Source: Cyanidioschyzon merolae
Taxonomy: Eukaryota
DNA length: 64,000 nt
Direction: 5' to 3' (one strand)
NCBI GenBank assembly: GCA_000091205.1
Contig: AP006501.2
Below, in pieces: positions 1-62,859 of the stretch. Below the pieces are notes generated by a model. The model had not been told where the DNA came from. It was given only the letters and a program-made list of their open reading frames with translations, and searched no databases. A program made the translations under genes and the position numbers. Positions within the stretch are counted from its first letter, which is position 1. The number at the start of each line of letters is the position of its first letter.

Positions 1-1849
1 TCCATCACCTTCCCAGGGATGAAGCATTCGTCGAGAGCCAATGGTGAACTTGGATGGACCGTTTCGATACAGGGTGCCGACGAGGTCATGAGGAAGGTCG
101 GGTAAGTCCAGTACGTAGGAGTCCTCCTCGTTCATATCGCCGTGCGCTAGCTCCCAGGATCGACGATCGAAAGCACTCAGCGACTGTGTTTTACCTGGTG
201 CCGAGGTTAGCTGGCCCTGTTCACGAACCGTGTTGGTCGCTCCGCTTTCCTGGGAACTCAGATGTGTCGCACCGCCGCTGCGAGCAGGCCGAAGGCTTCT
301 TCTCTTCAGTCTGCCACATTGGAAAGTAGCGGTGGCGTTCACACTAGCGCCCTTCCAGTGCCTGAGTGCACCGTTGCCGACCACGAAGGCAGTCTTATCT
401 CCAGGATGCAAATTCATACTGCAATGATATTATACGAGTTTAATCACTGGACCAACGAGTCCTCAAACGTCGTATAGTGGCCTGCGCACGAGTCCCTTCG
501 ATGCTGTAGCGGGAACATGCGCGTGATAGAATGGACTACGAGTCAGAGGTATGCATTTGCTCGAAGGATCGATCACAGGATGCAGGGGCGATTTGTACAA
601 ACCCTTCCAGACCTAACATTTCTGTATATCATAGAACAAGCGTCACGCACGGGCATCCCGCATATGCGAAACGCGCAGCGGCGGCCTATAACCTCATTGC
701 GGGCGATGCTTGATGACCCACGATGTGCGTGTCTCGAATGGGATTTTCCCAGGAGATGCCGTCCATATCGGTTCTTGGAGGCGAGATACCTCCTCTTCAG
801 CAGACAATTCTGCATTCTACTGCCGCAGAACCGGTCTTCTCGTAGGGGATAGTTGTTCGGTGCATCCAAAGGTCCACCTAGCGCCCAGGCATGCGTAGGC
901 GATTGCTGTACCACCGTCGCGGTCGCTGACTTCAGCCAGTGCGGCTTCGCGGTGCCTTGAGAGCCCGCACTGCGTTCTATTCTCGGGCACGAGCATTGCA
1001 CCGCACTCAATGCCCGTGGACGCGCGAACGCTGCCGATAATTTTCTACTGGATTCGCGTATCGCTTAGAATACACGCTCTGATTTTTTCCATATCGCAAA
1101 CGATCGCCTCCATGAAGCAACTTTGTCGCTCACGAAGCATCCGAAAGTGACCGTTCCTAACATGCCTTCGATAATCCTGCTCAAGATCAAGTACGGCTTG
1201 AGGAAGCGAGCGGCGCGAACGCCTTTCGATGCCTCGCGCGTACGCACATGATCCCTTCCTATCTGCGCAAGATCGATGAATCTGGACAAAACTCCTCACG
1301 GACACGACGATCGAAAAAGACGTGCACACAGTCTCAAGTTTCTCGATACGCGCACGCATCTGCAGGCCATGATCACGTAATCGGAACGCTTGCACTTTCT
1401 TCACTGTGTTTCCCCTGCCCTCATGTATTCCATGCCCTGAGATCGCGTGCTTCGTCATCGCATGCCGCGCATCCCCATGAGGTATCCGGATGCTGCGCTG
1501 CTGCATTCCCCCGAGGGGGCTTTTCCTCTCCATTCGCTGCCTGATGCAGAACTAGCGTGCGTCATTGAGACTGCACCAGAACCTTGCCTTCCCCGCACGG
1601 AAACAAGTCGTCGACATATGTTATCGGTATGCAACGCGAGATGGTCTATATCGTCTTGAGCAAGAAACACCGTACATAAAGCGAGCAAATTCGAACACGA
1701 TTTCCATGATACCCAGCGACGATCGTTGAGCGAGCGCGCGGGGCGCCACACCTGTGGATCTGGTAGTAGTGTCGGTACCCGCGCTGCAGGTAACGTTTCG
1801 TGTACCCAAACTGCAGACTGAGGACCTTGTTTCCAAAGCTTTTCTCATA

Positions 1850-3607
1850 ATGTGGGTTGTACCTGGCAGTTTTAGGGCACGACGATGCGACGGTTTTGGT
1901 GTAGAATGGACCTGGTCTGTTGATCGGGCCTGTGCAACAGTTCCGTGCTCGAGCCTGAGGCGACCGCGACCACGACAGGGCGCTACGGTGCGGCGAGAGC
2001 GAAACTGGAGTCAAAAGCCGTGTGGCGTCCCGGGCAACACAGTGGTGAGAGTCTCTTGCCATATAGGGCAAAGTTCGAGTAATGACGAGGGTGGCACTGG
2101 AGAGCCTCTGGTGCACAGCAGTGGCGAACAGGCGTGGCAGCGTCGTGCGCTCTCCAGCACCGGTACAAAGGACGCGGAGCTCGACGCTAATGAGCTGGAT
2201 GACGGCCTCTGGGGTATTGTTTCTCAGCTGCCAGTCAAGCGCATTCTCATCTGGGCTGCGTTCTGCTGGCTCGTGTACCTTTGTCGCCCGTTCATGGGTG
2301 TGTTATTCGGTACGTTCGTCGTCTCGTACGTCGGGGTCTCTTTTTGCCAATGGGGCACACGTTTTCTCCAGCGGTTCGGTATCCAGGCTGCCCGCCGTGT
2401 CATTGTTGGCGTCTACTACAGCGGCATCGCTTTGTTCATCACGACGATGAGCCTGTTGACGATCCCGCGGATCATCAAAGAGGGCCAGTACTTTGTGGGC
2501 ATCATACGGAGTAGCAATCCATACGTATGGATCGCGGATACCATGCGACGAGCCCTGGGTGATGAACTCTCTGCCAAGGTGGAGGCCTTGGTGCTCTCAG
2601 AGGGTTATGCTGAGCTTGCAGACCAAGACACCGGGTCGAGTGCTGGCCAGAGCCCGTCCACAAACGGAGCCGAGACTTCCGAAAGCACAAACGAGGCTTC
2701 TCCGGGGCCGGTGCAAGTCCGCATACCGCATCGCGGCAGCGCAGCAGATGCCAAGGCGGAACGAGCCCCTGGCATCGCTGCCGGTCCGCTAGCGACCATG
2801 AATGCACCGGCAGAGTGGACAGAGGAGCGATCGAGACGACTCGGTTTGATCATCCAAAAGTCACTTTCGCGTTATGTGAATCGTTTCGCCTCCATCGTCA
2901 GCAGGATTTTGAGCAACAGCACAAAAATCATTGTGAAAGTACTGCTTTCCCTGGTGTTCTCATTCCTGATCGTCTGGGATCTGCCATCTGTGGCTGCTGG
3001 CCTGCGTTCTCTTCGCCGCTCCCGACTGCGGGCAGCGTACTTGGAACTGGCGCCGGCCATTGGTGAGTTCTGCGCCCTCCTCGGCCGTTCATTCGAAGCA
3101 CAGTCGATTATTGCGCTTGTGAACACGACGTTGACAACGATTGGCATGGGGATTCTCGGGTTACCGGGTATTGGCTTTCTCTCTCTTCTCTGCTTGATAT
3201 GCTCTTTTATTCCGCTTTTCGGGATTCTGCTCAGCACACTGCCGATGTGTGTCGTCGCGCTGACGGAATACGGGCCAATGCGTGCATTCGCCGTCGTGGT
3301 TATGGTTGCAATTGTTCACCTGATTGAGGCCTATTTCCTGAATCCACAAATCTACAGCGCTCATCTCAAGCTGCCGCCCTTGGTTGTTCTTATGGTTCTG
3401 TACATTGGCGAGCATGCAGGTGGCGTCATGGGTCTTATTCTTGCAGTGCCGCTGACGGTTTATTTGTTGCGATGGATCTATGATATTCCAGAAACGAAGG
3501 AACGTTCTGCGTACGTGAGCTCTATGCGAGCGACCAGCTCGAATGGCAGAGAAGAGCCAAGCGAAGACGTGACGATCACGCGCCAGCAGCAGCAGCAGCA
3601 GCAATAG
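1850..3607 (+). CDS. AI-2E family transporter (PerM/UPF0118-like) membrane protein with an N-terminal extension, a long hydrophilic insert and a C-terminal Q6
   Basis: The ORF track entry 1754..3607 starts with GTG. The first in-frame ATG is at 1850. The C-terminal two thirds match the AI-2E pattern of conserved Gly/Pro-rich transmembrane helices (...GLPGIGFLSLLCLICSFIPLFGILLSTLPMCVVAL...LIEAYFLNPQIYSAHLKLPPLVVLMVLYIGEHAGGVMGLILAVPL...). The roughly 120-aa N-terminal extension is compatible with an organelle transit peptide. Confidence 0.6.
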   Translation: MWVVPGSFRARRCDGFGVEWTWSVDRACATVPCSSLRRPRPRQGATVRRERNWSQKPCGVPGNTVVRVSCHIGQSSSNDEGGTGEPLVHSSGEQAWQRRALSSTGTKDAELDANELDDGLWGIVSQLPVKRILIWAAFCWLVYLCRPFMGVLFGTFVVSYVGVSFCQWGTRFLQRFGIQAARRVIVGVYYSGIALFITTMSLLTIPRIIKEGQYFVGIIRSSNPYVWIADTMRRALGDELSAKVEALVLSEGYAELADQDTGSSAGQSPSTNGAETSESTNEASPGPVQVRIPHRGSAADAKAERAPGIAAGPLATMNAPAEWTEERSRRLGLIIQKSLSRYVNRFASIVSRILSNSTKIIVKVLLSLVFSFLIVWDLPSVAAGLRSLRRSRLRAAYLELAPAIGEFCALLGRSFEAQSIIALVNTTLTTIGMGILGLPGIGFLSLLCLICSFIPLFGILLSTLPMCVVALTEYGPMRAFAVVVMVAIVHLIEAYFLNPQIYSAHLKLPPLVVLMVLYIGEHAGGVMGLILAVPLTVYLLRWIYDIPETKERSAYVSSMRATSSNGREEPSEDVTITRQQQQQQQ

Positions 3608-7199: not shown

Positions 7200-7900
7200 A
7201 AGGCGACTAGATACCACCATGCAACGGTGAGATGCATCTGGTACAAGGCACCGCGGAACGAACGCACGAGACGTTCGACTGCGTTCGTATAGTCAGCACA
7301 ACGGAAAACGTTCTGCAACCCTCGAGGGTATACGTCTATATATGTACTCACGTGCAGACGCCTATCAGCCGTTTTTTGACCTGCCACCTGCTATCGGTTT
7401 TAGTTTATCCAGGCACACTTTGAGTCTGAGAAGCTGAATAACAAAGTTGGATGGTGTCCGCTTCTCGGGTCTGGTCTTCAGCACCGCATATCCTCTAGTA
7501 TTGGTGGTGGCGTTCAAGTCTCCGTTCAAGGACGCCAAGCATTTGTATAGCCTCTGCTGGTTGCACGGACGAGTGCAAGAATAGCTAGCGTTTGCGCCCT
7601 CTGTGCTAATAAAGTCTCGTCGGCAAACATCTTTTCTCGCGTAGCTCCGCTCTTCTCCTTCTTTTTGCCCTACATCATTCGATAGTCGACAAGAAGAGTT
7701 TTTTTGTCGAACCTGGCGATGACAGGCCTCCGGGATCCCCGACTTGCATGTCCATATCTTTCCCTTGGATTTTCATTTCATCAAATGAACGTACGTTGAA
7801 CGCGTCTGCTATAAACCTCGAAAAAGCGTTTAGTCACACGCACTTAAGGCTGGAACACATTCGAGGCGAAAGACGATAACAACCGAGCCACCAGCTTGTC
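7200..7900 (+). repeat. Dispersed non-coding repeat, family A, copy 1 (about 700 bp)
   Basis: Shares collinear similarity of about 70-80% with 22380..23080. Shared strings include cagtttatccaggcaca, gagtctgaga.gctg, and tcgacaagaagagtttttttgtcgaa versus tcgaggagaagagttttttgtcgaa. It has no conserved ORF. Boundaries are approximate. Confidence 0.5.
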
Positions 7901-22379: not shown

Positions 22380-23080
22380 TGCGAATACGCACTCTGGATA
22401 GACGTACGGCTTCGAGTGGATGCAAAGCGAGGCGTCTCAGGTCTGTGGGGCAATGCGCATTGCCAATACGATCGGGAAAACGAACAATGTCCAGCGACGA
22501 TGCAGGGTACATGAATAGACTCCCGTGGACGGCTTCCAGTCATTTTTGAACGGCCCGATGCCATCGGGTTCAGTTTATCCAGGCACAGTGCGAGTCTGAG
22601 AGGCTGCTTCACAAAGTCGGCTCGCGTCAGCTCCTCAGATCTCGTCTTCAGGACCGCAGCTTGTCTGGTCAAGAGTACGGCGTCAAGGCTCGGGTCACGA
22701 ACGCCATATGTTTCTTGCCTCGCGTTGAACTCAGCCATGGAGGGAGTCCTAGAAAACGTGCCCGCTGTACGACTAGAGTCTCGTCATCGTCTCGTCGGGC
22801 AAACACCTTTTCTAGCCTATCTCCGCTCTTCATCCGCATCACTTGCACTTCTTCGCTCGATCGTCGAGGAGAAGAGTTTTTTGTCGAAACTGACGATGAC
22901 GGTCCTTCAGGATCCCGGATTTCCATCTCCGTACCTTTCTCTTGGGTTTTTTGTTTCCTCAAATGGACACACTTTGAACACATCTGTTATAGACCGCGAA
23001 TATACACTTCATGACACGCACCCGGAAACGGAACACCATTACGGTAAAAGACACCAGCGTACACCGCTGCAGCTACCTTG
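22380..23080 (+). repeat. Dispersed non-coding repeat, family A, copy 2
   Basis: Collinear with 7200..7900 (see that feature). Same orientation, about 15 kb away. Confidence 0.5.
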
Positions 23081-34331: not shown

Positions 34332-35456
34332 TCATGGATGAATAGTATCTTTGAATTCAAAGAACGAGTCATGCATGCGAATGAAAGAGTACTCCTCGCA
34401 TGACCCACAACACCCGTATAAATTAGGTTCTTTGTGAAAGATAGCGAACCCGGCGTGCATAAAACCTTGGAAAAACTCATCCACTTCTGGGATAGAGGCG
34501 ATACCCGCGTGCACTTCGATAAGGACTTGATTCACGTGCCGCAGCGCGTGCCAGGTTCTCAAGGCATATTGCTCTTCAGAGCTGAGTTCACGTTGGCTCC
34601 GTCCTTGGCGAAGGAGCTTGTCGGCTGCCCGGAACGCTCCCAAGAAAGAGGTGAACTCACCACCCTCGATATCGATCTTGAGCACCTCGACGACGTTTGG
34701 CAGCTCCAGGTGACCCAATCCAGACATGATCTCCGCCAGCGAATTGTTGCTCTCAGCCGGGCCAAGCGGCCGGCGAAAAAAACGAACGCGTTCCAGAAAG
34801 CTCTCGGAGTGCATCGCAGATGGTGGCGATGATGTTGGGTCAAAGACGAAAAAATCGCAGTCCGGCAAGCGTTCATGAAGCTTCGTTTCGAAACTGAAAT
34901 CGTTGTTGCTACCAAAACTGTACACAATGCAGCGATACGGGAGCCTGAGCTGCTCACGAAACAGCCGTCCCCGGTTCAGGATAGCAGGTGGGTCGCACAC
35001 CCATTTGCCACCGTCTCCGTTGTTACCGATCCGTTCCTCTAAGGCACAGCCGATATCCGGTTCCCAGTTATTGTAGAAAAAAACCGACGGGTTCGGTTCG
35101 AGGGTAACGGTCTGGCGCTTTCGCTGACGTCGTAACCGAATCCTCCGTTGGGCCCAGAGCGCGTCCGACTCGCACCAGAAGCCGAGCGACTCTTTCAGTG
35201 CTCGCGTGTCCTTCGAAGTCACTGGTAGGGTCCGGTCCCAAATCTCCGTCAGGGTTTTCGCGTTGCGCAAAGAGCTCCCACGACGAAGAGCCCTCGACAC
35301 GGAGCGAACGCAGCTGTCATCCACGGCGGGAAGATCCGCGCGCTGGACACCACTAGAGCGTCCGTTGAGAACACTAGTAGCGCGGTATATTACGATAAGA
35401 GCATAAATAAGAAAAGTCAAAGCCCCTGAAGCGATGCACGGTTTTCGCCACGTCAT
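34332..35456 (-). CDS. FkbM-family (Methyltransf_21-like) methyltransferase domain protein with an N-terminal hydrophobic anchor
   Basis: Shows ...CIVYSFGSNNDFSFETKLHERLPDCDFFVFDP...LKIDIEGGEFTSFL.... The first 80 codons of the track ORF 34332..35696 are a frame-shifted read of the element copy-1 3' tail (GRPLKVELYEKK echoes [12 protein letters not shown] of copy 2). I therefore place the start at the first ATG outside the element, 35456 (MTWRKPCIASGALTFLIYALIVIY). Confidence 0.5.
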   Translation of the reverse strand: MTWRKPCIASGALTFLIYALIVIYRATSVLNGRSSGVQRADLPAVDDSCVRSVSRALRRGSSLRNAKTLTEIWDRTLPVTSKDTRALKESLGFWCESDALWAQRRIRLRRQRKRQTVTLEPNPSVFFYNNWEPDIGCALEERIGNNGDGGKWVCDPPAILNRGRLFREQLRLPYRCIVYSFGSNNDFSFETKLHERLPDCDFFVFDPTSSPPSAMHSESFLERVRFFRRPLGPAESNNSLAEIMSGLGHLELPNVVEVLKIDIEGGEFTSFLGAFRAADKLLRQGRSQRELSSEEQYALRTWHALRHVNQVLIEVHAGIASIPEVDEFFQGFMHAGFAIFHKEPNLYGCCGSCEEYSFIRMHDSFFEFKDTIHP

Positions 35457-35489
35457 GCCGGCCACTGAAAACAAACGTCTTTCAAAAGA

Positions 35490-38400
35490 AAAACGCTGCC
35501 GCCAACGGTGTACAGTAGTTACGGGAAACGCGCCGTAAGCAAATCGTCTCCAGCTGAGGTGCAGACGCATCCCCGTCTTTTTCGACCGTCCACCTACTAC
35601 GTCTTTCATTTTCTTCTCATATAATTCCACTTTGAGAGGTCGCCCCACAGGTTCTCTCGTGTCGAATCTGGAGGTCTTTTCTCCAGCACCGCACATCTCC
35701 TGATATTGATAGCGACATTAAAGTCTCGGTTCACAAACTCCATGCGTTTCTTGCCATCTTTGGTTGTGCTTACTAATGCAAGTAGCCCACGAACTTTCGC
35801 CCTCCTTTCCATTTGCTCCTCCGTCAGCGGTCCGTACTTTGCTATTTCGTCAGGGCTCCTCTGGCACTTTTCCATCTCGATCCTTTGAAGTGTACAACAC
35901 AGTTCATGGTGTGTATACGATGTTCGGAACTCATCTACAGGTATTGTAACTAACCTGTCTGCACACCCCTTGTACGTTCTTGTCGTTGGAGCTCGTGTAC
36001 ACTCTTTTTCAGACGCCTAGCGCCCTGCTCCGTATGCTACTACCAGCCTTTGACTTTCATCCTCTTTGAAGGCACTCAGCTGACTGAAAAAGTTCGCGAA
36101 CGCACACTGCTTGCCACCGTATAGATTCATACGCAATCGAGGCCACCGGGGCTTTGTATACTCTTTCCACAGTGCCTCCTAATGAGCAATACGAACTTTC
36201 ATGAACTCCCGAAAAGCTTGAAAATCTGCTCCGCGGCTCGTCACCTCGCTCAAAGCTTCCAGGTGCTCTTTCATTCCTGCATTGCATGTCTCGTTTTTCT
36301 TCCTCGTATTCATCACACCGGATTCTCGATAGTATCTCGCTCTCGGGAACCTCAAAAGACGCATGTCTTTCTGAATGAAGTTGCCGTCTGGACCATATTC
36401 CGCACGCCTGGGTACAGCGATGGCTGTGACATTCGTATTCCCAGGGTCCGCGCCAACGACAAAGTCGTTATACTTCCTTTTCTGTGTGGCACAATCCGCC
36501 TCCTTCTCATCTTCATACCTCGTCACGTCAACGACAACGTCGTCATCCTCTACCTCTTGCGTAGCAGGATCCGCGTCTTTGTTTTCCTCATCCTTCGTGA
36601 CGGGCGCAGCCGAGGACGGAACTGGCCGAGCTGCCTTCAACCGCCGATAGTCTACACACTAGGCTACTCCATCGGTTTCGATCATCCCCGTGAATACCTT
36701 TTGCTTGCTCGTTTTGAGACGTTTGAAATCGAAGATGTTCTTCCAGTACGTCTCCCTGGTTTCACGGGTGAACTCTCTTTTCCTAAAGTTGAACTCCGGA
36801 CTGATTTCCCTCATGATGCCGTAAAGGACGCCGGAGTCGATAGTCACATAATGTGACTTGATGTTGCACAACGGAACGACGTTGAAGCGCTTCCCCATTA
36901 GGAAAGCCTTCTGTCTCTCCCACTCTTCATTCTTGTCCTCACTCGGCTTCATCTCCGCCTTGCGTTCGAGTTCACGGTCCAGAAACACGAAATAGCGCAG
37001 GATGAGGCGATAATGTCTTTCCTTATCTTTTTTCAACTCTGATACCTTTGCTGCTTGATTCGCCAGCCCCAGTACCGCACGGTGCTCTTGTATAGGCGCA
37101 CGGATTACAGAAGCTTCATTCGTGCTCCTGTGTGACGTCTTCTCATCAACGAATTCGATCTCATCTTCATGCTTGCGATCGTTCGTGATGCCATCGATAA
37201 TCGCCCATATTCCTTTGCGAGAGATGCCCGGATAGAGTGCAAACACCGCGCGTATGATGAAACGTTGGAGCTTCATGGTCATATGGTTCCTCAAGTTCGT
37301 GACGTACGTTTTCATCGCCCCGTAGGTGTAAACACTCGAGTCACCCCTGTATCGAGCACCGCCGAAGCGGGATTCGGTGTGGTTTTCGTGGAGGGCATGC
37401 ACTAGCTCATTTTGCTTCCGCGTTTCCGCTGTACCAAGCATCAGATGGCGAATAAAAGTCTTGTCGAATAATTCTTTCCGAACTTCGACTGTTTAGATGT
37501 CCGTCACGTCGCGATACATCCTCTTCACCAAATGCATGAGTCCTGAAGAGGCCTTTACAATACTCAAGGAGTACGACTCGTCATGGGTTCTGATAGCCTC
37601 CCGCACTTTTTCCCTGTACGGATCCTTGATATGTCCAAGAATACAGACTTTCACTACTGTCTCGTCGTACTGTCGTCTTTCTTGCAGCCATTGGCGTCGG
37701 GCTTCCATCTTTTGCTTCTTGGCCCTCTCCAGTTCCTGTGGACTCGGCACTGTTTTTCGGTTTTTTTTCTGGAAACCGGCGACACACTGGGCCTCCGGCA
37801 TCCTCCACTTCCACTTACGTACATTTCCTTTTTATTTTTTTGAAAAAGGAACCCCCTTTGACTGCTTCTTCTATGAACCGCGAACAATGACTTGAATACA
37901 CTCTCTTGAGAGTTGAAACACAACGGAATCGAAAAAATATACTTTGCTACGGCTTCAGAGCGAATACTACTCGTACATTAGAGCAGAATGCTAACGATCA
38001 GGATCGCGTTTCACTTCAACGGCGAGAAGCACGTCATGTATCATGCCCGCCAGATATGGAGATACGCGCATCGACCATGCTACACAAAAAAGGAAGAGAA
38101 ACTAGCAGTTCAATTGCAACGAGATAACGATTTCTTCTCCCTCTATGATACATATTAAAAGGGAGGCAAGATTTCCATGTAGTCGAAACTTTACTTTCCG
38201 GGCGGAAGGCCCTGCGAGCCGGACGAGTCTGCTAGACCAGTCCTTCATGATCTTCCCAGTGCTCAGTGCTGTGGTGATATTCGAGCAACTCGACCGAAAC
38301 GCAGTTTATTCTCGGGCCGGGGACGGGTATGCTGCGTCTGGGCATCGCGCTGGTCGCAGTGGACTCCTACAAAGTCGTTTCGCGCCACACTACACTGTAC

Positions 38401-38575
38401 CTCTGTCTGCGCAGAGTGCATGCTCCCAGGATGATATTGAATCCCGACCACGTTTCAGGTGAAGCTTTCCTCGATCCGAATCCCTCAGTGGTATGGCAAA
38501 GCCGCTCTGCCTCTATGATGCATCGGCATCAGCCGTATAAGCGCTTTTGCTGGAGGTCAAAGCGGGCACTCGGCG
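35490..38575 (-). mobile_element. TnpB/Fanzor-like RuvC-nuclease element, copy 1 (more decayed), inserted between the divergently transcribed FkbM-like and O-methyltransferase genes
   Basis: An about 3.08-kb block collinear with 58620..61636. The 5' 1.7 kb is about 99% identical between copies and the 3' 1.2 kb about 80-85%. Similarity stops at ...gggcactcggcgc (38575) and fades out near 35490. Confidence 0.6.
35606..37801 (-). pseudogene. Disrupted Fanzor/TnpB-like ORF of copy 1
   Basis: ORF0 37493..37801 (basic N-terminus, KKNRK / RAKKQK). In-frame TAA. ORF A 36659..37441, ending at a TAG where copy 2 has CTG. Fragment 36179..36640 carries RuvC-I ([11 protein letters not shown]). A gap at 35875..36179 lacks an ORF. 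Fragment 35606..35875 carries RuvC-III (NRDFNVAINI). Confidence 0.6.
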
Positions 38576-38794
38576 CACTTTAGTACTCACAAAACGATCC
38601 GTATATCCGAGAGGAAGTAAGCGTCATGGAACTTGAGGATAGGGTGCATCATGATGGACACTTTTTCGATTATTAATCCACATCCCGCAATTTGCGATCC
38701 AAGTACAATCTGAGCGTTTTGTCAAACCGAAAAGAAATCACCATGGCTGCAGACGCCCCCGGCGTGCTCACGAGTTGTTCAGCTCAGCGCCTCT

Positions 38795-39931
38795 ATGGTT
38801 CCAGAAGGTGCTTGCTCTGCCAAGGAGCTCACTGAAAACGACCAACTCCGCCAAATATATGCAATTTACTATGGCAACCGCAAAGCAGCAGTCCTTGCCG
38901 TTGCCCAGCGTTACCGAGTTTTTGACTTTTTAGAAGCCCGCGAACCGGCCGGAGCAACCCTCGATGATATCGTGCAAGCATACGGCTTTTCAGTTCGCGG
39001 AACGAAGGCGCTACTGCTTGCACTCGAGTACCTGAATCTGGTAAAGATTGCAAATGATCGCTACTTCCTAGCACCGTCCAGTCGACAGTTCTTGGTTTCC
39101 ACTGCACCAGAGTCTGTCGCTGGCTTGATCGACCTGGAGTTCTCGGAGTTTATCACACCGAGCGCCCTTGACCAAGCTTTACGTTCCGGACGACCACAAG
39201 TCTACGACGCTGTACCAGACGTATGGCAACAACACCAACAGGATACAGAGCGCTGCGTCCGCTTCACAGCTGCGATGCACGCTATCAGCAGTGGACCCGC
39301 TCGTGCTATGGTCCAGAGGCTCGCCCTCGAGCCGCACTGGGGCCTGCACGCGTCACTGGCAACGCGACCGCATCGTCTGCTTGATGTCGGTGGTGGCAGT
39401 GGCTGCTATGCCATCGAATGGATGCGGCATGCACCTGTACCTAACAGCGAAGCCGACGTGCTCGAGACGCCAGCCTGCAGCCGCGTGACCCAGCACTACA
39501 TCGACGAGGCCGCTTCGAGCATCCAACCGAATCGTATTCGCGTCCTGCCCGGTGATATGTTCACAGAAGAAGCGTACGGTGATGCGAATAGGTATACGCA
39601 CGTCCTGCTCTCGCAGATCCTTCACGACTGGCCAGTGCGTAGCGAGGCGTCGTCCGCACCGCGGCGAGATGGCGAACGCCTGGTAGAACTTGCGTGGCGG
39701 GCGCTATCTCCTGGAGGTGTCCTTGTTGTTCACGAGAAACTCGTGCACGATGAAGACTCCGCCATGGTGACTATAGATATGTTGCATTGGACCCAGGGTC
39801 AACAGTACACAGAGGCGATGATGCGGGAGCTGTTACGCGATGCGCATTTTATCGAGGTGCGCTTTCGGAAGACGCCTCACACCTACTGGTGGCTAGCCCT
39901 GGCGCAGCGACCATTCACCCCGAGTACGTAG
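38795..39931 (+). CDS. Family-2 (plant/bacterial-type) O-methyltransferase
   Basis: Has an N-terminal dimerisation/winged-helix region and a SAM-binding block RLLDVGGGSGCYAIEW...IRVLPGDMF...HVLLSQILHDW...GGVLVVHEKL. ATG confirmed at 38795. Confidence 0.6.
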   Translation: MVPEGACSAKELTENDQLRQIYAIYYGNRKAAVLAVAQRYRVFDFLEAREPAGATLDDIVQAYGFSVRGTKALLLALEYLNLVKIANDRYFLAPSSRQFLVSTAPESVAGLIDLEFSEFITPSALDQALRSGRPQVYDAVPDVWQQHQQDTERCVRFTAAMHAISSGPARAMVQRLALEPHWGLHASLATRPHRLLDVGGGSGCYAIEWMRHAPVPNSEADVLETPACSRVTQHYIDEAASSIQPNRIRVLPGDMFTEEAYGDANRYTHVLLSQILHDWPVRSEASSAPRRDGERLVELAWRALSPGGVLVVHEKLVHDEDSAMVTIDMLHWTQGQQYTEAMMRELLRDAHFIEVRFRKTPHTYWWLALAQRPFTPST

Positions 39932-47573: not shown

Positions 47574-49352
47574 CGACAGGTGCCTTGTCCGTTTAGCTGC
47601 GTTCGCGTTGCCCCTCAAGACGCAGAAACGATTGCGTCGCGACAACCAAAGTCGTCCCTGTACAGATAGCAGGGTGCGTACGCGTGACACCTGCCGCCCA
47701 CCTCGAGTCGAAGCGAAACGAATCGCTAAGTTTGCAACCCGAAATTCACTCTGTATCGAGCGCTGTCCGGTAAACCAGCCGACTCCTGCGTTCCGGCAGT
47801 GAGCAACGAAACATGCGTGCTGCATAGAGCGCCGATCCGTGCACACAGGCGTTCTGGGCATCAGCGCGCGCTGATCTTCATCCATGCGGCGCTGTCGCCC
47901 GCCAAGTGATGGTGATACCGCATCGCTGCACGTAAGCAGGATTCCGTCGAATGCTTGATTGCTATCGATCACTAGGGAGCAGCGTAGCGTTTCGCGCTAG
48001 CCAATGCCAGGTTCCAAGAAACTCGCGCAAGACTCGTCGTTGGGATGGTGGATAGATCGATGTATCCGGGGAAACGCCGGGTTGCTACGCGGTATGTGGA
48101 CGCTGAATGCGCCGCCGCTTCGGACGCCATTCAGGGACAAAACAGCGTAAAGTCGCTTTTCGACAGGCTTCAGCTTGAGGCAGTCAGAATCTTTTCGCTT
48201 CGTCGAGCGCGTGCTCGAGTCGACGCCCACACAAGGGTATGACAAAGCCGTTCTGGCTGCGTACGGTATCCGCGACGGCGTTAGAGGCACCGCAGAAGGT
48301 GCGCGCCGGAGGCTTGGCACGCAGCGCCTCCCCGGAGCTTACCGTGATGCCTGCGAACGCGTGTGCGCGCGATCGCGTTGCTGCCGATGCCGCATGTGAT
48401 GATTCCCTTTATGCGAATACGCCGCAGCTACGGGATACACGGGACAGCGCAGCCAGGAATGAGCACGGGTTGAGAGCCAGATATTTACCGCTGGTCATCG
48501 AAGCGCTCAAGCTCTCCGATGCGCGGCACCATGGTGACCGCGTATCATGGAATGCGCGACCCGACCAGAGAAAAGAGAGCATCAGCGTCGTCCGATTTGG
48601 GTCCAACGCGATCCCCGATAATCCTGCCAGTCGGTGAGATACTCCCAAACATGCGCATTGATCCGGGGGCACTGGTCATGAAAAAAAAAAGCGAATTTCG
48701 AGACAAAATCATCCCTGACGATCACGCTTCACCATGAACGCACTTCTCTGCGCAGTTGCCAGACGTTCGCACGAACGCAGCGCACCAGTTCGAGCGCTTC
48801 ATAACAGGGGCTTGAACTCGTGGCGCCCGCCAGCGAGGCAAACTCCTCACATCAGAGCTCATTCTCGATGCTTTGCTGTACTCTACAAAGTCTGTTTTGG
48901 AACTTTGGACGCGGGTTACCCATCGGCAGCAGATGCGCTTTTGGGAGATTCCGGGGAAACGCACCAATCATAGGTCGGAAAAACGTGCCGCGCTTCGAAC
49001 TGCGACGCAATGCAGTGCGCCCCGTCACGCGGGCATCTCGTGGAACCTGGCAGCTTCGGGAAGGAGTGGTTGTTGCGTTCTGAGACGCCCACAGGCCTTG
49101 GGGCTATCAGGGTCGACTGGTGCGTTCTTTGAAATTGGACCATATAAAATAACTCTGGCAAACCCGTACAGAGAGCGCTGAGGCACTCGCGACGTTTGTT
49201 TTTCGAGGTCGCTGGGGAGGTGCGGCTGTGGCTTGCGCTTGCGCATCAACGTCTAAGAACAGTCTGTTTGCGGCACTTCGAAAGAAAACTTTGCAGCCGA
49301 TCGGCACAGAGCGTTTCACAAATCGATCCCAATCTCGGAAGCACTGAACTGG

Positions 49353-58619: not shown

Positions 58620-58740
58620 CTACGCTCTGATGTCGGGCGTCGCCACCAGCGGTGTAGAATAGTGGCGAGAAAGTCGACCCAGAAAAATCGTTTCTAGCTG
58701 TCGTGCAGACGCCTCCCCGTCCTTCTCGACCGGCCACGTA
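58620..58740 (-). ncRNA. Candidate omega-RNA (guide RNA scaffold) region immediately 3' of the RuvC ORF stop codon
   Basis: The non-coding sequence 3' of the stop is conserved between copies for about 110-120 bp (for example gtgcagacgc.tccccgtc, aaatcgt.tc.agctg). It ends where the unrelated host flanks begin. This is by analogy with TnpB/Fanzor loci only. Confidence 0.25.
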
Positions 58741-59856
58741 CTACTGGTTCCATTTTTTTTCATATAGTTCCGCTTTGAGAGGTTGTCCAAGAAAAAGCTC
58801 TCGTGTCCACTCTGAAGGTCTTCTTTCCATCACCGCACATGTCCTTATATTGATAGCGGCATTAAAATCTCGGTTCACAAACTCCATACGTTTCTTGCCA
58901 TTGACTGTACTTAATAATGCGAGTAGTCCTCGAACATTCGCCCACCTTTCCATATGCTCCTCCGTCAGCGGTCCGTACTTTGCTATTTCGTCAGGGCTCC
59001 TCTGGCACTTTTCCATCTCGATCCTTTGAAGTGTACAACACAGTACATGGTGTGTATACGATGTTCGGAACTCATCTACAGGTACTATGACAAAACGTCG
59101 TGCGTACTCCTTATACGTTCTCGTCGTTGGAGCTGGTGTACACCCTTTTTGGGTCTTCGAGCGCGCTGCTCCGTACGCCACTACGAGCCTCTGACATTGA
59201 TCCTCTTTGAGGGCACTCAACCCATTGAAAAAATTCGCGAACGCCCGTTGCCTCCCACAATATAGATTCATACACAGACGAGCCCACCGAGGCTTTGTAT
59301 ATTCATTCCGCAGCGCATCCCAATGAGCAACACGAACATTCATGAATTTCAGAAAAGCTGTAAAGTCCGCTCCGCGGCTCGTCACCTCGCTCAAAGCTTC
59401 TACGTGATCCTTCATTCCTGCATTCCATGTCTCAATTTTCTTCGTTGCATTCATGATTCCCGATTCTCGATAGAATCTTGCTCTCGAGAACCTCAAAAGT
59501 CGCATGTCTTTCTGAAGCAAGTTACCGTCCTTACCATCTTCGGCACGCTTGGGTACAGCGATGGTTATGATATTTGTGTTTCCGGGGTCCGCGCCAACGA
59601 CAAAGTCTATCTCATGCACTTTCAGTGCCGCAGGATCCGCGTCTCTGTTTTCCTCATGCTTCGTCATGGGCGAAGCCGAAGGCACGATAGGAAGAAACGC
59701 CTCCAAGCGCTTGCAGTCTACACACAGGGCTACTCCATCGGTTTCGATCATCCCCGTGAATACCTTTTGCCTGCTAACTTTTGAGACGTCTGAAATCGAA
59801 GAGACTCTTCCAGTACGTGTCAGGGGCTTCGCCGGTGAACTCTGTCCGCCTTCCAT
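58741..59856 (-). CDS. Element ORF B: TnpB/Fanzor-type RuvC nuclease domain with a degenerate zinc-finger insert
   Basis: Ruv[20 protein letters not shown]. Ruv[29 protein letters not shown]/Zn-finger remnant H..CC....C. Ruv[23 protein letters not shown]. The order and spacing are as in TnpB/Fanzor/Cas12. It continues the ORF A reading frame after the +1 shift (shared ...[13 protein letters not shown]). Confidence 0.65.
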
Positions 59857-60508
59857 CGAACTCCGGACAGATCCCCTTCATGATGCCATGAAGGACGCCG
59901 GAGTCGATAGTCACATAATGTGACTTGATGTTGCACAACGGAACGACGTTGAAGCGCTTCACCGCTAGGAAAGCCTTCTGTCTTTCCCACTCTTCACTCT
60001 TGTCCTCACTCGGCTTCATCTCCGCCTTGCGTTCGAGTTCACGGTCCAGAAACACGAAATAGCGCAGGATGAGGCGATAATGTCTTTCCTTATCTTTTTT
60101 CAACTCTGATACCTTTGCTGCTTGATTCGCCAGCCCCAGTACCGCACGGTGCTCTTGTATAGGCGCACGGATTACAGAAGCTTCATTCGTGCTCCTGTGT
60201 GACTTCTTCTCATCAACGAATTCGACCTCATCTTCATGCTTGCGATCGTTCGTGATGCCATCGATAATCGCCCATATTCCTTTGCGAGAGATGCCCGGAT
60301 AGAGTGCAAACACCGCGCGTATGATGAAACGTTGGAGCTTCATGGTCATATGGTTCCTCAAGTTCGTGACGTACGTTTTCATCGCCCCGTAGGTGTAAAC
60401 ACTCGAGTCACCCCTGTATCGAGCACCGCCGAAGCGGGATTCGGTGTGATTTTCGTGGAGGGCGTGCACTAGCTCATCTTGCTTCCGCGTTTCCGCTGTA
60501 CCAAGCAT
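59774..60508 (-). CDS. Element ORF A: N-terminal (non-RuvC) half of the Fanzor/TnpB-like protein
   Basis: ATG confirmed at 60506..60508. It is 244 aa and about 95% identical to copy-1 ORF A (36659..37441). It ends at a stop created by a +1 insertion relative to copy 1 (aaaagttagcaggcaaaagg versus aaaacgagcaagcaaaagg). Confidence 0.55.
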
Positions 60509-60559
60509 CAGATGGCGAATAAAAGTCTTGTCGAATAATTCTTTCCGAACTTCGACTGT

Positions 60560-60883
60560 TTAGATGTCCGTCACGTCGCGATACATCCTCTTCACCAAAT
60601 GCATGAGTCCTGAAGAGGCCTTTACAATACTCAAGGAGTACGACTCGTCATGGGTTCTGATAGCCTCCCGCACTTTTTCCCTGTACGGATCCTTGATATG
60701 TCCAAGAATACAGACTTTCACTTCTGTCTCGTCGTACTGTCGTCTTTCTTGCAGCCATTGGCGTCGGGCTTCCATCTTTTGCTTCTTGGCCCTCTCCAGT
60801 TCCTGTGGACTCGGCACTGTTTTTCGGTTTTTTTTTTCTGGAAACCGGCGACACACTGGGCCTCCGGCATCCTCCACTTCCAC
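60560..60883 (-). CDS. Element ORF0: basic (NLS-like) N-terminal segment of the Fanzor-like protein, separated from ORF A by an in-frame TAA present in both copies
   Basis: Reads ...KKNRKTVPSPQELERAKKQKMEARRQWLQERRQYDETEVKVCILGHIKDPYREKVREAIRTHDESYSLSIVKASSGLMHLVKRMYRDVTDI. Copy 2 has an A10 run where copy 1 has A8, which shifts the N-terminal frame. The in-frame start is GTG. Confidence 0.45.
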   Translation of the reverse strand: MEVEDAGGPVCRRFPEKKNRKTVPSPQELERAKKQKMEARRQWLQERRQYDETEVKVCILGHIKDPYREKVREAIRTHDESYSLSIVKASSGLMHLVKRMYRDVTDI

Positions 60884-61710
60884 TTACGTACATTTCCTTT
60901 TTATTTTTTGAAAAAGGAACCCCCTTTGACTGCTTCTTCTATGAACCGCGAACAATGACTTGAATACACTCTCTTGAGAGTTGAAACACAACGGAATCGA
61001 AAAAATATACTTTGCTACGGCTTCAGAGCGAATACTACTCGTACATTAGAGCAGAATGCTAACGATCAGGATCGCGTTTCACTTCAACGGCGAGAAGCAC
61101 GTCATGTATCATGCCCGCCAGATATGGAGGTACGCGCATCGACCATGCTACACAAAAAAGGAAGAGGAACTAGCAGTTCAATTGCAACGAGATAACGATT
61201 TCTTCTCCCTCTATGATACATATTAAAAGGGAGGCAAGATTTCCATGTAGTCGAAACTTTACTTTCCGGGCGGAAGGCCCTGCGAGCCGGACGAGTCTGC
61301 TAGACCAGTCCTTCATGATCTTCCCAGTGCTCAGTGCTGTGGTGATATTCGAGCAACTCGACCGAAACGCAGTTTATTCTCGGGCCGGGGACGGGTATGC
61401 TGCGTCTGGGCATCGCGCTGGTCGCAGTGGACTCCTACAAAGTCGTTTCGCGCCACACTACACTGTACCTCTGTCTGCGCAGAGTGCATGCTCCCAGGAT
61501 GATATGGAATCCCGACCACGTTTCAGGTGAAGCTTTCCTCGATCCGAATCCCTCAGTGGTATGGCAAAGCCGCTCTGCCTCTATGATGCATCGGCATCAG
61601 CCGTATAAGCGCTTTTGCTGGAGGTCAAAGCGGGCACTCGGCGCCCGATAGAATATACAAAAAGACTAGTACGTCCGAAAGGAGGTACCTTTCATGGAAC
61701 AAAAACGTAG

Positions 61711-62859
<1,149 letters not shown>

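Follow-up and report, generated by a model that had tools for sequence, protein, structure and literature searches.

Decayed CMe-1A Fanzor1 elements and ectopic gene conversion between two copies in Cyanidioschyzon merolae

Two decayed copies of one element

Cyanidioschyzon merolae is a red alga of acidic hot springs. In a stretch of 64,000 nucleotides from its genome (contig AP006501.2, assembly GCA_000091205.1; hereafter the window), an initial annotation had described two Fanzor-like elements, with the one at 35490-38575 (copy 1) as the more decayed. Comparison of the region 35000-39200 with the whole window by blastn returned, besides the self-match, an alignment of 36564-38752 with 59630-61819 (93.8% identity) and one of 35498-36525 with 58642-59666 (82.3%). 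These two collinear matches bear out that copy 1 and the second element (copy 2) lie on the same strand about 23 kb apart, and the collinearity extends over the element instead of being confined to short low-complexity stretches. No further full copy was found in the window by tblastn with the repaired protein. The genes flanking copy 1 match C. merolae 10D BAM82953.1 and BAM82952.1 exactly, and the gene beside it at 38795-39931 is an exact match to XP_005538989.1 of strain 10D on a 1.28-Mb record. For the 3.2 kb of the element itself, the NCBI annotation carries no protein.

Both copies belong to CMe-1A, the single Fanzor1 family reported in C. merolae (Bao & Jurka 2013, Mobile DNA 4:12, PMC3627910). 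The family was described as ~150 genomic copies, each ~80% identical to a consensus of 3169 bp whose single-exon open reading frame (ORF) encodes a 734-aa protein; terminal inverted repeats (TIRs) were absent, target-site duplications (TSDs) were left undetermined, and the 5' 635 bp were 95% identical to a separate repeat, TE-N2_CMe (PMC3627910). Using the consensus DNA and protein from the supplements of that paper, we delimited both elements, each ~3.2 kb long, by blastn. Copy 1 is full length (35476..38724, minus strand; consensus positions 4-3169), with 38724-36526 matching consensus 4-2193 at 84.0% and 36527-35476 matching 2117-3169 at 86.6%. Copy 2 (58642..61797, minus strand) matches consensus 1-3147 at 84.0% and lacks the last ~22 nt. 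The 5' limit of copy 1 had previously been set at 38575, but the consensus alignment carries the element ~150 bp further, to 38724; position 38575 is the edge of a tract of 99-100% identity between the copies and not the element end.

Membership in CMe-1A is directly established by these alignments. The host genome is the same, identity is full length at 84-87% for DNA and 75-79% for protein against the 734-aa CMe-1, and the copies share with the published family a single exon, the lack of TIRs, the lack of a recognisable TSD, the 5' leader module and a divergence to ~80% identity with the consensus. In agreement with the published description, no inverted-repeat pair linking both termini was found in copy 1 or copy 2, and no feature of either copy argues against membership. 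The expectation of a multi-copy family also held, with the ~150 published copies (PMC3627910) and more than 190 relatives in metagenome contigs. To a large extent, our result therefore confirms the earlier picture: both elements are dead members of a family in print since 2013, and one boundary is corrected; the new detail is that copies 1 and 2 have repeatedly overwritten parts of one another by gene conversion.

The degenerate Fanzor1 reading frame of copy 1, the counterpart of the 734-aa CMe-1, was located at 35535..37820 (minus strand) by tblastn and a three-way alignment of copy 1, copy 2 and the consensus. Residues 18-699 of the CMe-1 consensus protein align to it by tblastn with 78.5% identity. 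All three RuvC motifs are present in both copies, inside broken ORFs. In copy 1, RuvC-I (GADPGNTN, with D431) is intact at 36431..36454 (minus strand), the alternative-glutamate motif of RuvC-II (VDEFRTS, with E603) is intact in sequence at 35918..35938 (minus strand), and RuvC-III reads NRDFNVAINI at 35702..35731 (minus strand), with one Ala-to-Val change relative to the consensus and copy 2. Apart from its stop codons, the nuclease half of copy 1 is a single frame.

Aligning the copies and listing their stops and indels showed that neither has kept its coding capacity. Both have lost the consensus start (ATG to ACG), carry TAA in place of codon 2, have small indels in the N-terminal A-rich stretch, and share an in-frame TAA at consensus codon 108 (GAA to TAA; copy 1 37493..37495, copy 2 60560-60562, minus strand), which falls within the large conversion tract described below. 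Private to copy 1 are in-frame TAG codons at codon 385 (36659..36661), codon 520 (TGG to TAG, 36179..36181) and codon 574 (TGG to TAG, 36017..36019), all on the minus strand, together with a 1-nt deletion at consensus position 2994 (35650..35652, minus strand) that frameshifts the C-terminal tail. Private to copy 2 are an in-frame TAG in the tail (58694-58696) and indels of +2 at 60837, +1 at 59778, -3 at 58902 and -1 at 58760. Copy 1, with its start lost, four internal in-frame stops and a frameshift, cannot encode the nuclease, and copy 2 is a pseudogene as well. Copy 1 is indeed the more decayed, with three private TAG stops to one in copy 2. These three stops recur in a hot-spring metagenome locus orthologous to copy 1 (L086), which indicates that the decay of copy 1 is old.

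The two minus-strand ORFs previously called in copy 1, at 36179-36640 with RuvC-I and at 35606-35875 with NRDFNVAINI, were confirmed. It had further been stated that no ORF spans 35875-36179. This is correct, because of the TAG stops at 36179-36181 and 36017-36019, yet the frame is unbroken there and RuvC-II VDEFRTS is intact. An intron or a readthrough site at the codon-108 TAA was considered and rejected, since no plausible pair of splice sites is present, the consensus reads GAA at this codon, and the start has been lost as well. No intact ORF of 650 aa or more was present in any of the 73 family copies sampled.

Copy 1 differs from copy 2 and the consensus in length by 75 nt, which is explained by an insertion at 36472..36546 (minus strand) just N-terminal of RuvC-I. 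The insertion is a second unit of a 25-aa acidic repeat, of which copy 1 has two and copy 2 and the consensus have one. The adjacent units of copy 1 match at 51 of 75 nt, compared with 20.6 +/- 3.8 (maximum 34) in shuffles; this direct comparison detected a duplication that Tandem Repeats Finder did not report. Among relatives, between one and five such units stand in tandem before RuvC-I (window 36472-36621; proteins P0001, P0007 and P0014).

Mosaic identity and gene conversion

Identity between copy 1 and copy 2 is bimodal rather than uniform. The copies are 57-81% identical in the initial ~150 bp of the element and 99-100% identical over consensus ~150-1880 (copy 1 38578-36880), and in the nuclease half identity is 75-84% (82.8% overall), except for an island of ~130 bp at 99%. 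The large tract (36880..38578, minus strand) is 1.7 kb long, internal to the element and equal to copy 2 59947-61646 at 99-100%. The short island (35814..35945, minus strand) is the same as copy 2 58955-59086 save one site. Identity to the consensus is 72-94% everywhere in both copies, each of which departs from it by ~15% overall. In the 1687 columns of the large tract, 260 differences from the consensus are shared-derived and 15 are private; outside it (the 3' part, 1301 columns), 57 are shared and 212 private. The flanks of the two copies are unrelated. In the diverged nuclease half, the ratio of nonsynonymous to synonymous substitution rates (dN/dS) between the copies is 0.38 at a dS of 0.36, and across 73 family copies codon positions 1-2 are conserved more than position 3. 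This indicates that much of the divergence arose in functional lineages.

A nearly identical tract that lies between diverged element sequence on both sides and carries inactivating lesions points to ectopic (non-allelic) gene conversion between resident dead copies. Such conversion has occurred between copies 1 and 2 at least twice since their insertion. An older event homogenised the 1.7 kb that comprise the 5' leader and the N-terminal half of the ORF, and in a recent one copy 1 served as the donor of ~130 bp that surround RuvC-II in copy 2. The similarity over half of the alignment is thus due to gene conversion and not to recent common origin, which the initial annotation had overlooked together with the fact that the family was known as CMe-1A.

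To place these events in time and direction, we used orthologous loci. Hot-spring metagenomes yielded 80 family loci, among which L021 is orthologous to copy 2 and represents another strain (flanks 98.5-99.6% identical). The ortholog of copy 1, L086, was retrieved with a 153-aa ORF specific to copy 1 and agrees with that copy at 99.44% over window 36960-33565. The large tract is already present in L021, 99-100% identical to copy 1, so the large conversion is older than the divergence of these strains. At least 15 sites within the short island distinguish L021 from copy 2; there, copy 2 of strain 10D has the sequence of copy 1, and L086 matches copy 1 at every site but one. This indicates that the copy 1 sequence is ancestral at its own locus and has recently overwritten copy 2. 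Four independent contigs that contain the neighbouring gene of copy 1 all break inside the identical tract. Across L082-L085 and L086, the assembly breaks fall 250-380 nt upstream of the O-methyltransferase gene and at window position ~36960, where L086 starts; these two places are the edges of the 99-100% tract, and breaks there would be expected if the repeat is identical in those strains too.

The conversion tracts, with their relative timing and direction, are read directly from these comparisons. We put at roughly 88% the probability that copy 1 is a dead CMe-1A Fanzor1 element and that copies 1 and 2 are old, independent insertions later altered by ectopic gene conversion. Two considerations weigh against the details of this account: L021 and L086 come from different metagenome samples, and the timing assumes that both are close relatives of strain 10D; moreover, a third copy could have been the donor for both copies in the large tract.

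Two other histories might produce two copies that are nearly identical over half their length. A recent duplication, either segmental or by two insertions from one master, with a nuclease half that then diverged unusually fast, would account for 1.7 kb at 99-100% identity and for the lesions in common (the lost ATG and the TAA at codon 108). We regard it as very unlikely, since the flanks are unrelated, the first ~150 bp are just 57-81% identical so that diverged element sequence adjoins the tract at either end, each copy has ~100 private differences from the consensus outside the tract, and the dN/dS of 0.38 implies that much of this divergence arose under selection in separate lineages. The mosaic might instead predate insertion, if different recombinant masters sharing the 5' leader and the N-terminal half had inserted at the two loci with no exchange between them afterwards. 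Recombinants do form in this modular family, whose nuclease unit occurs downstream of four or more unrelated 5' modules. However, each copy would have to be a double recombinant, with an identical middle between a diverged 5' tip and a diverged 3' half, and the shared part must already have been dead, because the tract bears inactivating lesions. Such a history is also at odds with the island, which changed in situ, copy 2 differing from L021 exactly where it now matches copy 1; we therefore consider an origin of the mosaic before insertion unlikely.

Overall, conversion after insertion between Fanzor copies is documented here in situ, with direction and relative timing taken from orthologous loci. 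Pairwise identity of copies is consequently not a gauge of insertion age, which matters for dating copies and for rebuilding a consensus.

At the 3' edge of the large tract, five substitutions specific to copy 2 fall within 37 bp (window 36894-36930), where copy 1, L021 and the consensus agree with one another against copy 2. A third copy may have converted a small patch here, or the tract may have a mosaic end.

Fanzor1 homology and the element termini

The element had been called Fanzor-like from its sequence, and profile comparisons uphold this label. An exhaustive profile search found 1473 cluster representatives, and a deep profile was built from the CMe-1 consensus protein and 70 full-length relatives (71 proteins; 28-43% identity). 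Against 177,635 PDB sequences, this profile gave exactly three matches, all of them Fanzor1: Parasitella parasitica Fz1 (9cf0, E=3.7e-21), Spizellomyces punctatus Fz1 (SpuFz1; 8gkh, E=1.9e-13) and Guillardia theta Fz1 (9cer, E=2.9e-8). The DPG, DEFRT and NRD motifs line up in all three alignments. D431, G433, E603, R671, N674 and N678 do not vary across the 71 proteins, and D672 is almost invariant. A hallmark of Fanzor proteins is the replacement of the canonical RuvC-II glutamate by Gly or Pro, with an alternative glutamate downstream (PMC10530073). In CMe-1, VVAYGAG aligns with SpuFz1 VVMGDW at the canonical RuvC-II position, which was assigned by alignment, and the relocated glutamate lies ~35 residues downstream in VDEFRTS, aligned with SpuFz1 LDEYKTS.

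Could the three motifs be a chance resemblance in an unrelated repeat-encoded protein that is not a Fanzor/TnpB nuclease? Several negative results would fit such a protein. No Pfam family was significant on any window ORF fragment or on close relatives. With PF07282 (TnpB/Cas12f TNB), the window and consensus proteins stay below threshold (E ~0.2-0.4, 11-12 bits versus a cut-off of 26.3), and their similarity is confined to one short segment. A single sequence or a shallow profile (~70% identity) matched nothing in the PDB, the only precomputed domain on relatives is PF26935 (DUF8286), which is weak and uninformative on function, and the cysteines of a canonical CxxC...CxxC zinc finger are absent in sequence between RuvC-II and RuvC-III. 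Nonetheless, the deep profile retrieves three independent solved Fanzor1 structures and nothing else in the PDB set, so the Fanzor label holds; the catalytic columns are invariant among relatives that are just 28-43% identical, and the published phylogeny placed the family in Fanzor1 (PMC3627910). PF07282 is in addition matched by 15 of the 71 distant relatives at E<=0.01 (best 2e-8). We regard a chance resemblance as extremely unlikely, and homology to Fanzor1 as directly established.

Relative to the solved Fanzor1 proteins (8gkh, 9cf0 and 9cer), homology at the profile level runs from the REC-like region through RuvC-I, II and III, and CMe-1 shares with them Gly at the canonical RuvC-II site (AYG versus VMG in SpuFz1), the glutamate relocated to DE(F/Y)xTS, NRD in RuvC-III and a basic N-terminus. 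The similarity is distant, needing the deep profile, and CMe-1 differs in its missing zinc-finger cysteines, in the variable acidic 25-aa tandem repeat before RuvC-I and in a carrier without TIRs or transposase. With bacterial TnpB of IS200/IS605 and IS607 elements it has in common a RuvC-based nuclease on a mobile element, a guide expected from the 3'-terminal region, and insertion next to a short motif; in CMe-1A this is the T-run that precedes the left end, in a position analogous to that of the target-adjacent motif (TAM). In contrast to TnpB, CMe-1A resides in a eukaryotic nucleus and has no TnpA partner, its protein is ~300 aa longer, the RuvC-II glutamate is rearranged, and the PF07282 model is reached by just the 15 relatives mentioned above.

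At the 5' side, the T-run TTTCTTTT stands directly before copy 1 (38730..38737, minus strand), and its counterpart at copy 2 is TTTTTTTCTTTT (61798-61809). T makes up 65% of the final 8 nt in 18 distinct 5' flanks of the family, compared with a background of 18%, and positions -4 to -2 before the element are T in 14-16 of the 18. The T-run could reflect a preference for certain targets or for a TAM-like motif, or else the element itself could begin with it. The 3' non-coding terminus of copy 1 (35476..35534, minus strand) is where the end of a guide RNA would be expected by analogy. It contains a degenerate palindrome (35498-35525, minus strand) and, at 35476-35493 (minus strand), a T-run and GAAAGACG. 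The 57 family 3' ends compared are conserved in sequence, with a palindrome right after the stop codon followed by a second short hairpin in two variants. The 5' T-run and the conserved 3' terminus offer starting points for identifying the TAM and the guide RNA of a red-algal Fanzor1.

Many copies extend 10-20 nt past published consensus position 3169 with a common G/T-rich, GTTTGTTGTTGCTGG-like stretch (window 35455-35475). It may be that the published consensus stops 10-20 nt too early at its 3' end, or that GT-rich targets are preferred by the element.

Structural modelling and RNA analyses added no support to the reading of CMe-1A as a guide-dependent Fanzor1. AlphaFold2 modelling of P0001 with 48 close relatives gave a mean predicted local distance difference test (pLDDT) score of 45.8 and a predicted template-modelling (pTM) score of 0.30, which is unusable, and the assignment of a Fanzor fold consequently rests on sequence profiles. 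RNAalifold found 0 consensus pairs in the 57 family 3' ends, and in an arm-swap control the own arms reached -11.2 and swapped arms -10.8 kcal/mol (p=0.59), with no covariation. An overlapping guide RNA could show itself in raised conservation of third codon positions and synonymous sites near the 3' end, but no such rise was seen, and an Rfam scan of the element gave no match. Compensatory changes in the post-stop hairpin, initially suggested by the raw 3' ends, were withdrawn in view of the zero consensus pairs and the arm-swap result.

An intact CMe-1A would encode a TnpB-type nuclease of ~734 aa with a split RuvC site formed by the Asp of GADPG, the relocated Glu of VDEFRTS and the Asp of RuvC-III. 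By homology with characterised Fanzor1 proteins, this nuclease is predicted to be an RNA-guided endonuclease of double-stranded DNA, with its guide RNA encoded at the 3' end of the element (PMC10530073); RNA-guided cleavage, a 3' guide RNA and any part of the nuclease in the spread of the element are drawn from the literature. A more speculative extension is that the conversion patchwork is a footprint of homology-directed repair driven by Fanzor1 among resident copies. Fanzor1 made from a few intact CMe-1A copies and guided by RNAs from element 3' ends would cut at or near resident copies, and the breaks would be mended from other copies. In this way the family's own nuclease would keep its copies alike and preserve their coding capacity for longer. 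We consider this a long shot. If true, it would be a eukaryotic counterpart of TnpB-assisted transposon retention, and it would bear on a puzzle raised by Bao & Jurka, namely that a transposase-less family diverged to ~80% identity still keeps intact ORFs (PMC3627910).

Modules, relics and a neighbouring gene

The non-coding 5' leader of copy 1 (37821..38724, minus strand) corresponds to consensus 1-905, the consensus ORF beginning at position 906, and its first ~635 bp would correspond to the module published as common with TE-N2_CMe. About half of the family copies (among loci L002-L081) have no TE-N2-like leader; their sequence begins at consensus ~640-740, in support of a module boundary at that point. 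The leaderless copies (for example L002, L004, L007 and L012) carry one of at least three other upstream modules, mutually unrelated and 600-900 bp long, which are 75-88% identical within each group. The nuclease unit thus occurs together with 5' modules that can replace one another.

Weak relics of the family are also found elsewhere in the window. Fragments of the RuvC-III/C-terminal end lie at 7346-7878 and 22529-22690, both on the minus strand (tblastn E=1e-7 and 3e-8, 44-46% identity), and blastn aligns the pieces 7346-7579 and 7698-7878 at 69-71%. A solo piece of 71 bp at 48214-48284 corresponds to consensus 187-255 of the TE-N2-like leader (76% identity); together with the copies that begin at consensus ~640-740, it indirectly supports the sharing of this leader with a separate repeat.

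An ORF of 454 aa at 34332-35696 (minus strand) is an artefact that joins the frameshifted C-terminal tail of copy 1, in frame, to the methyltransferase BAM82952.1 (374 aa, PF13383), whose annotated start codon lies at 35454-35456, ~20 nt past the 3' end of the element. The same fusion of tail and methyltransferase appears in some metagenome gene calls. The methyltransferase gene beside copy 1 (window 34332-35456) has a paralog of at least 90% identity on another C. merolae chromosome (BAM79085.1, on a record of 481,791 bp).

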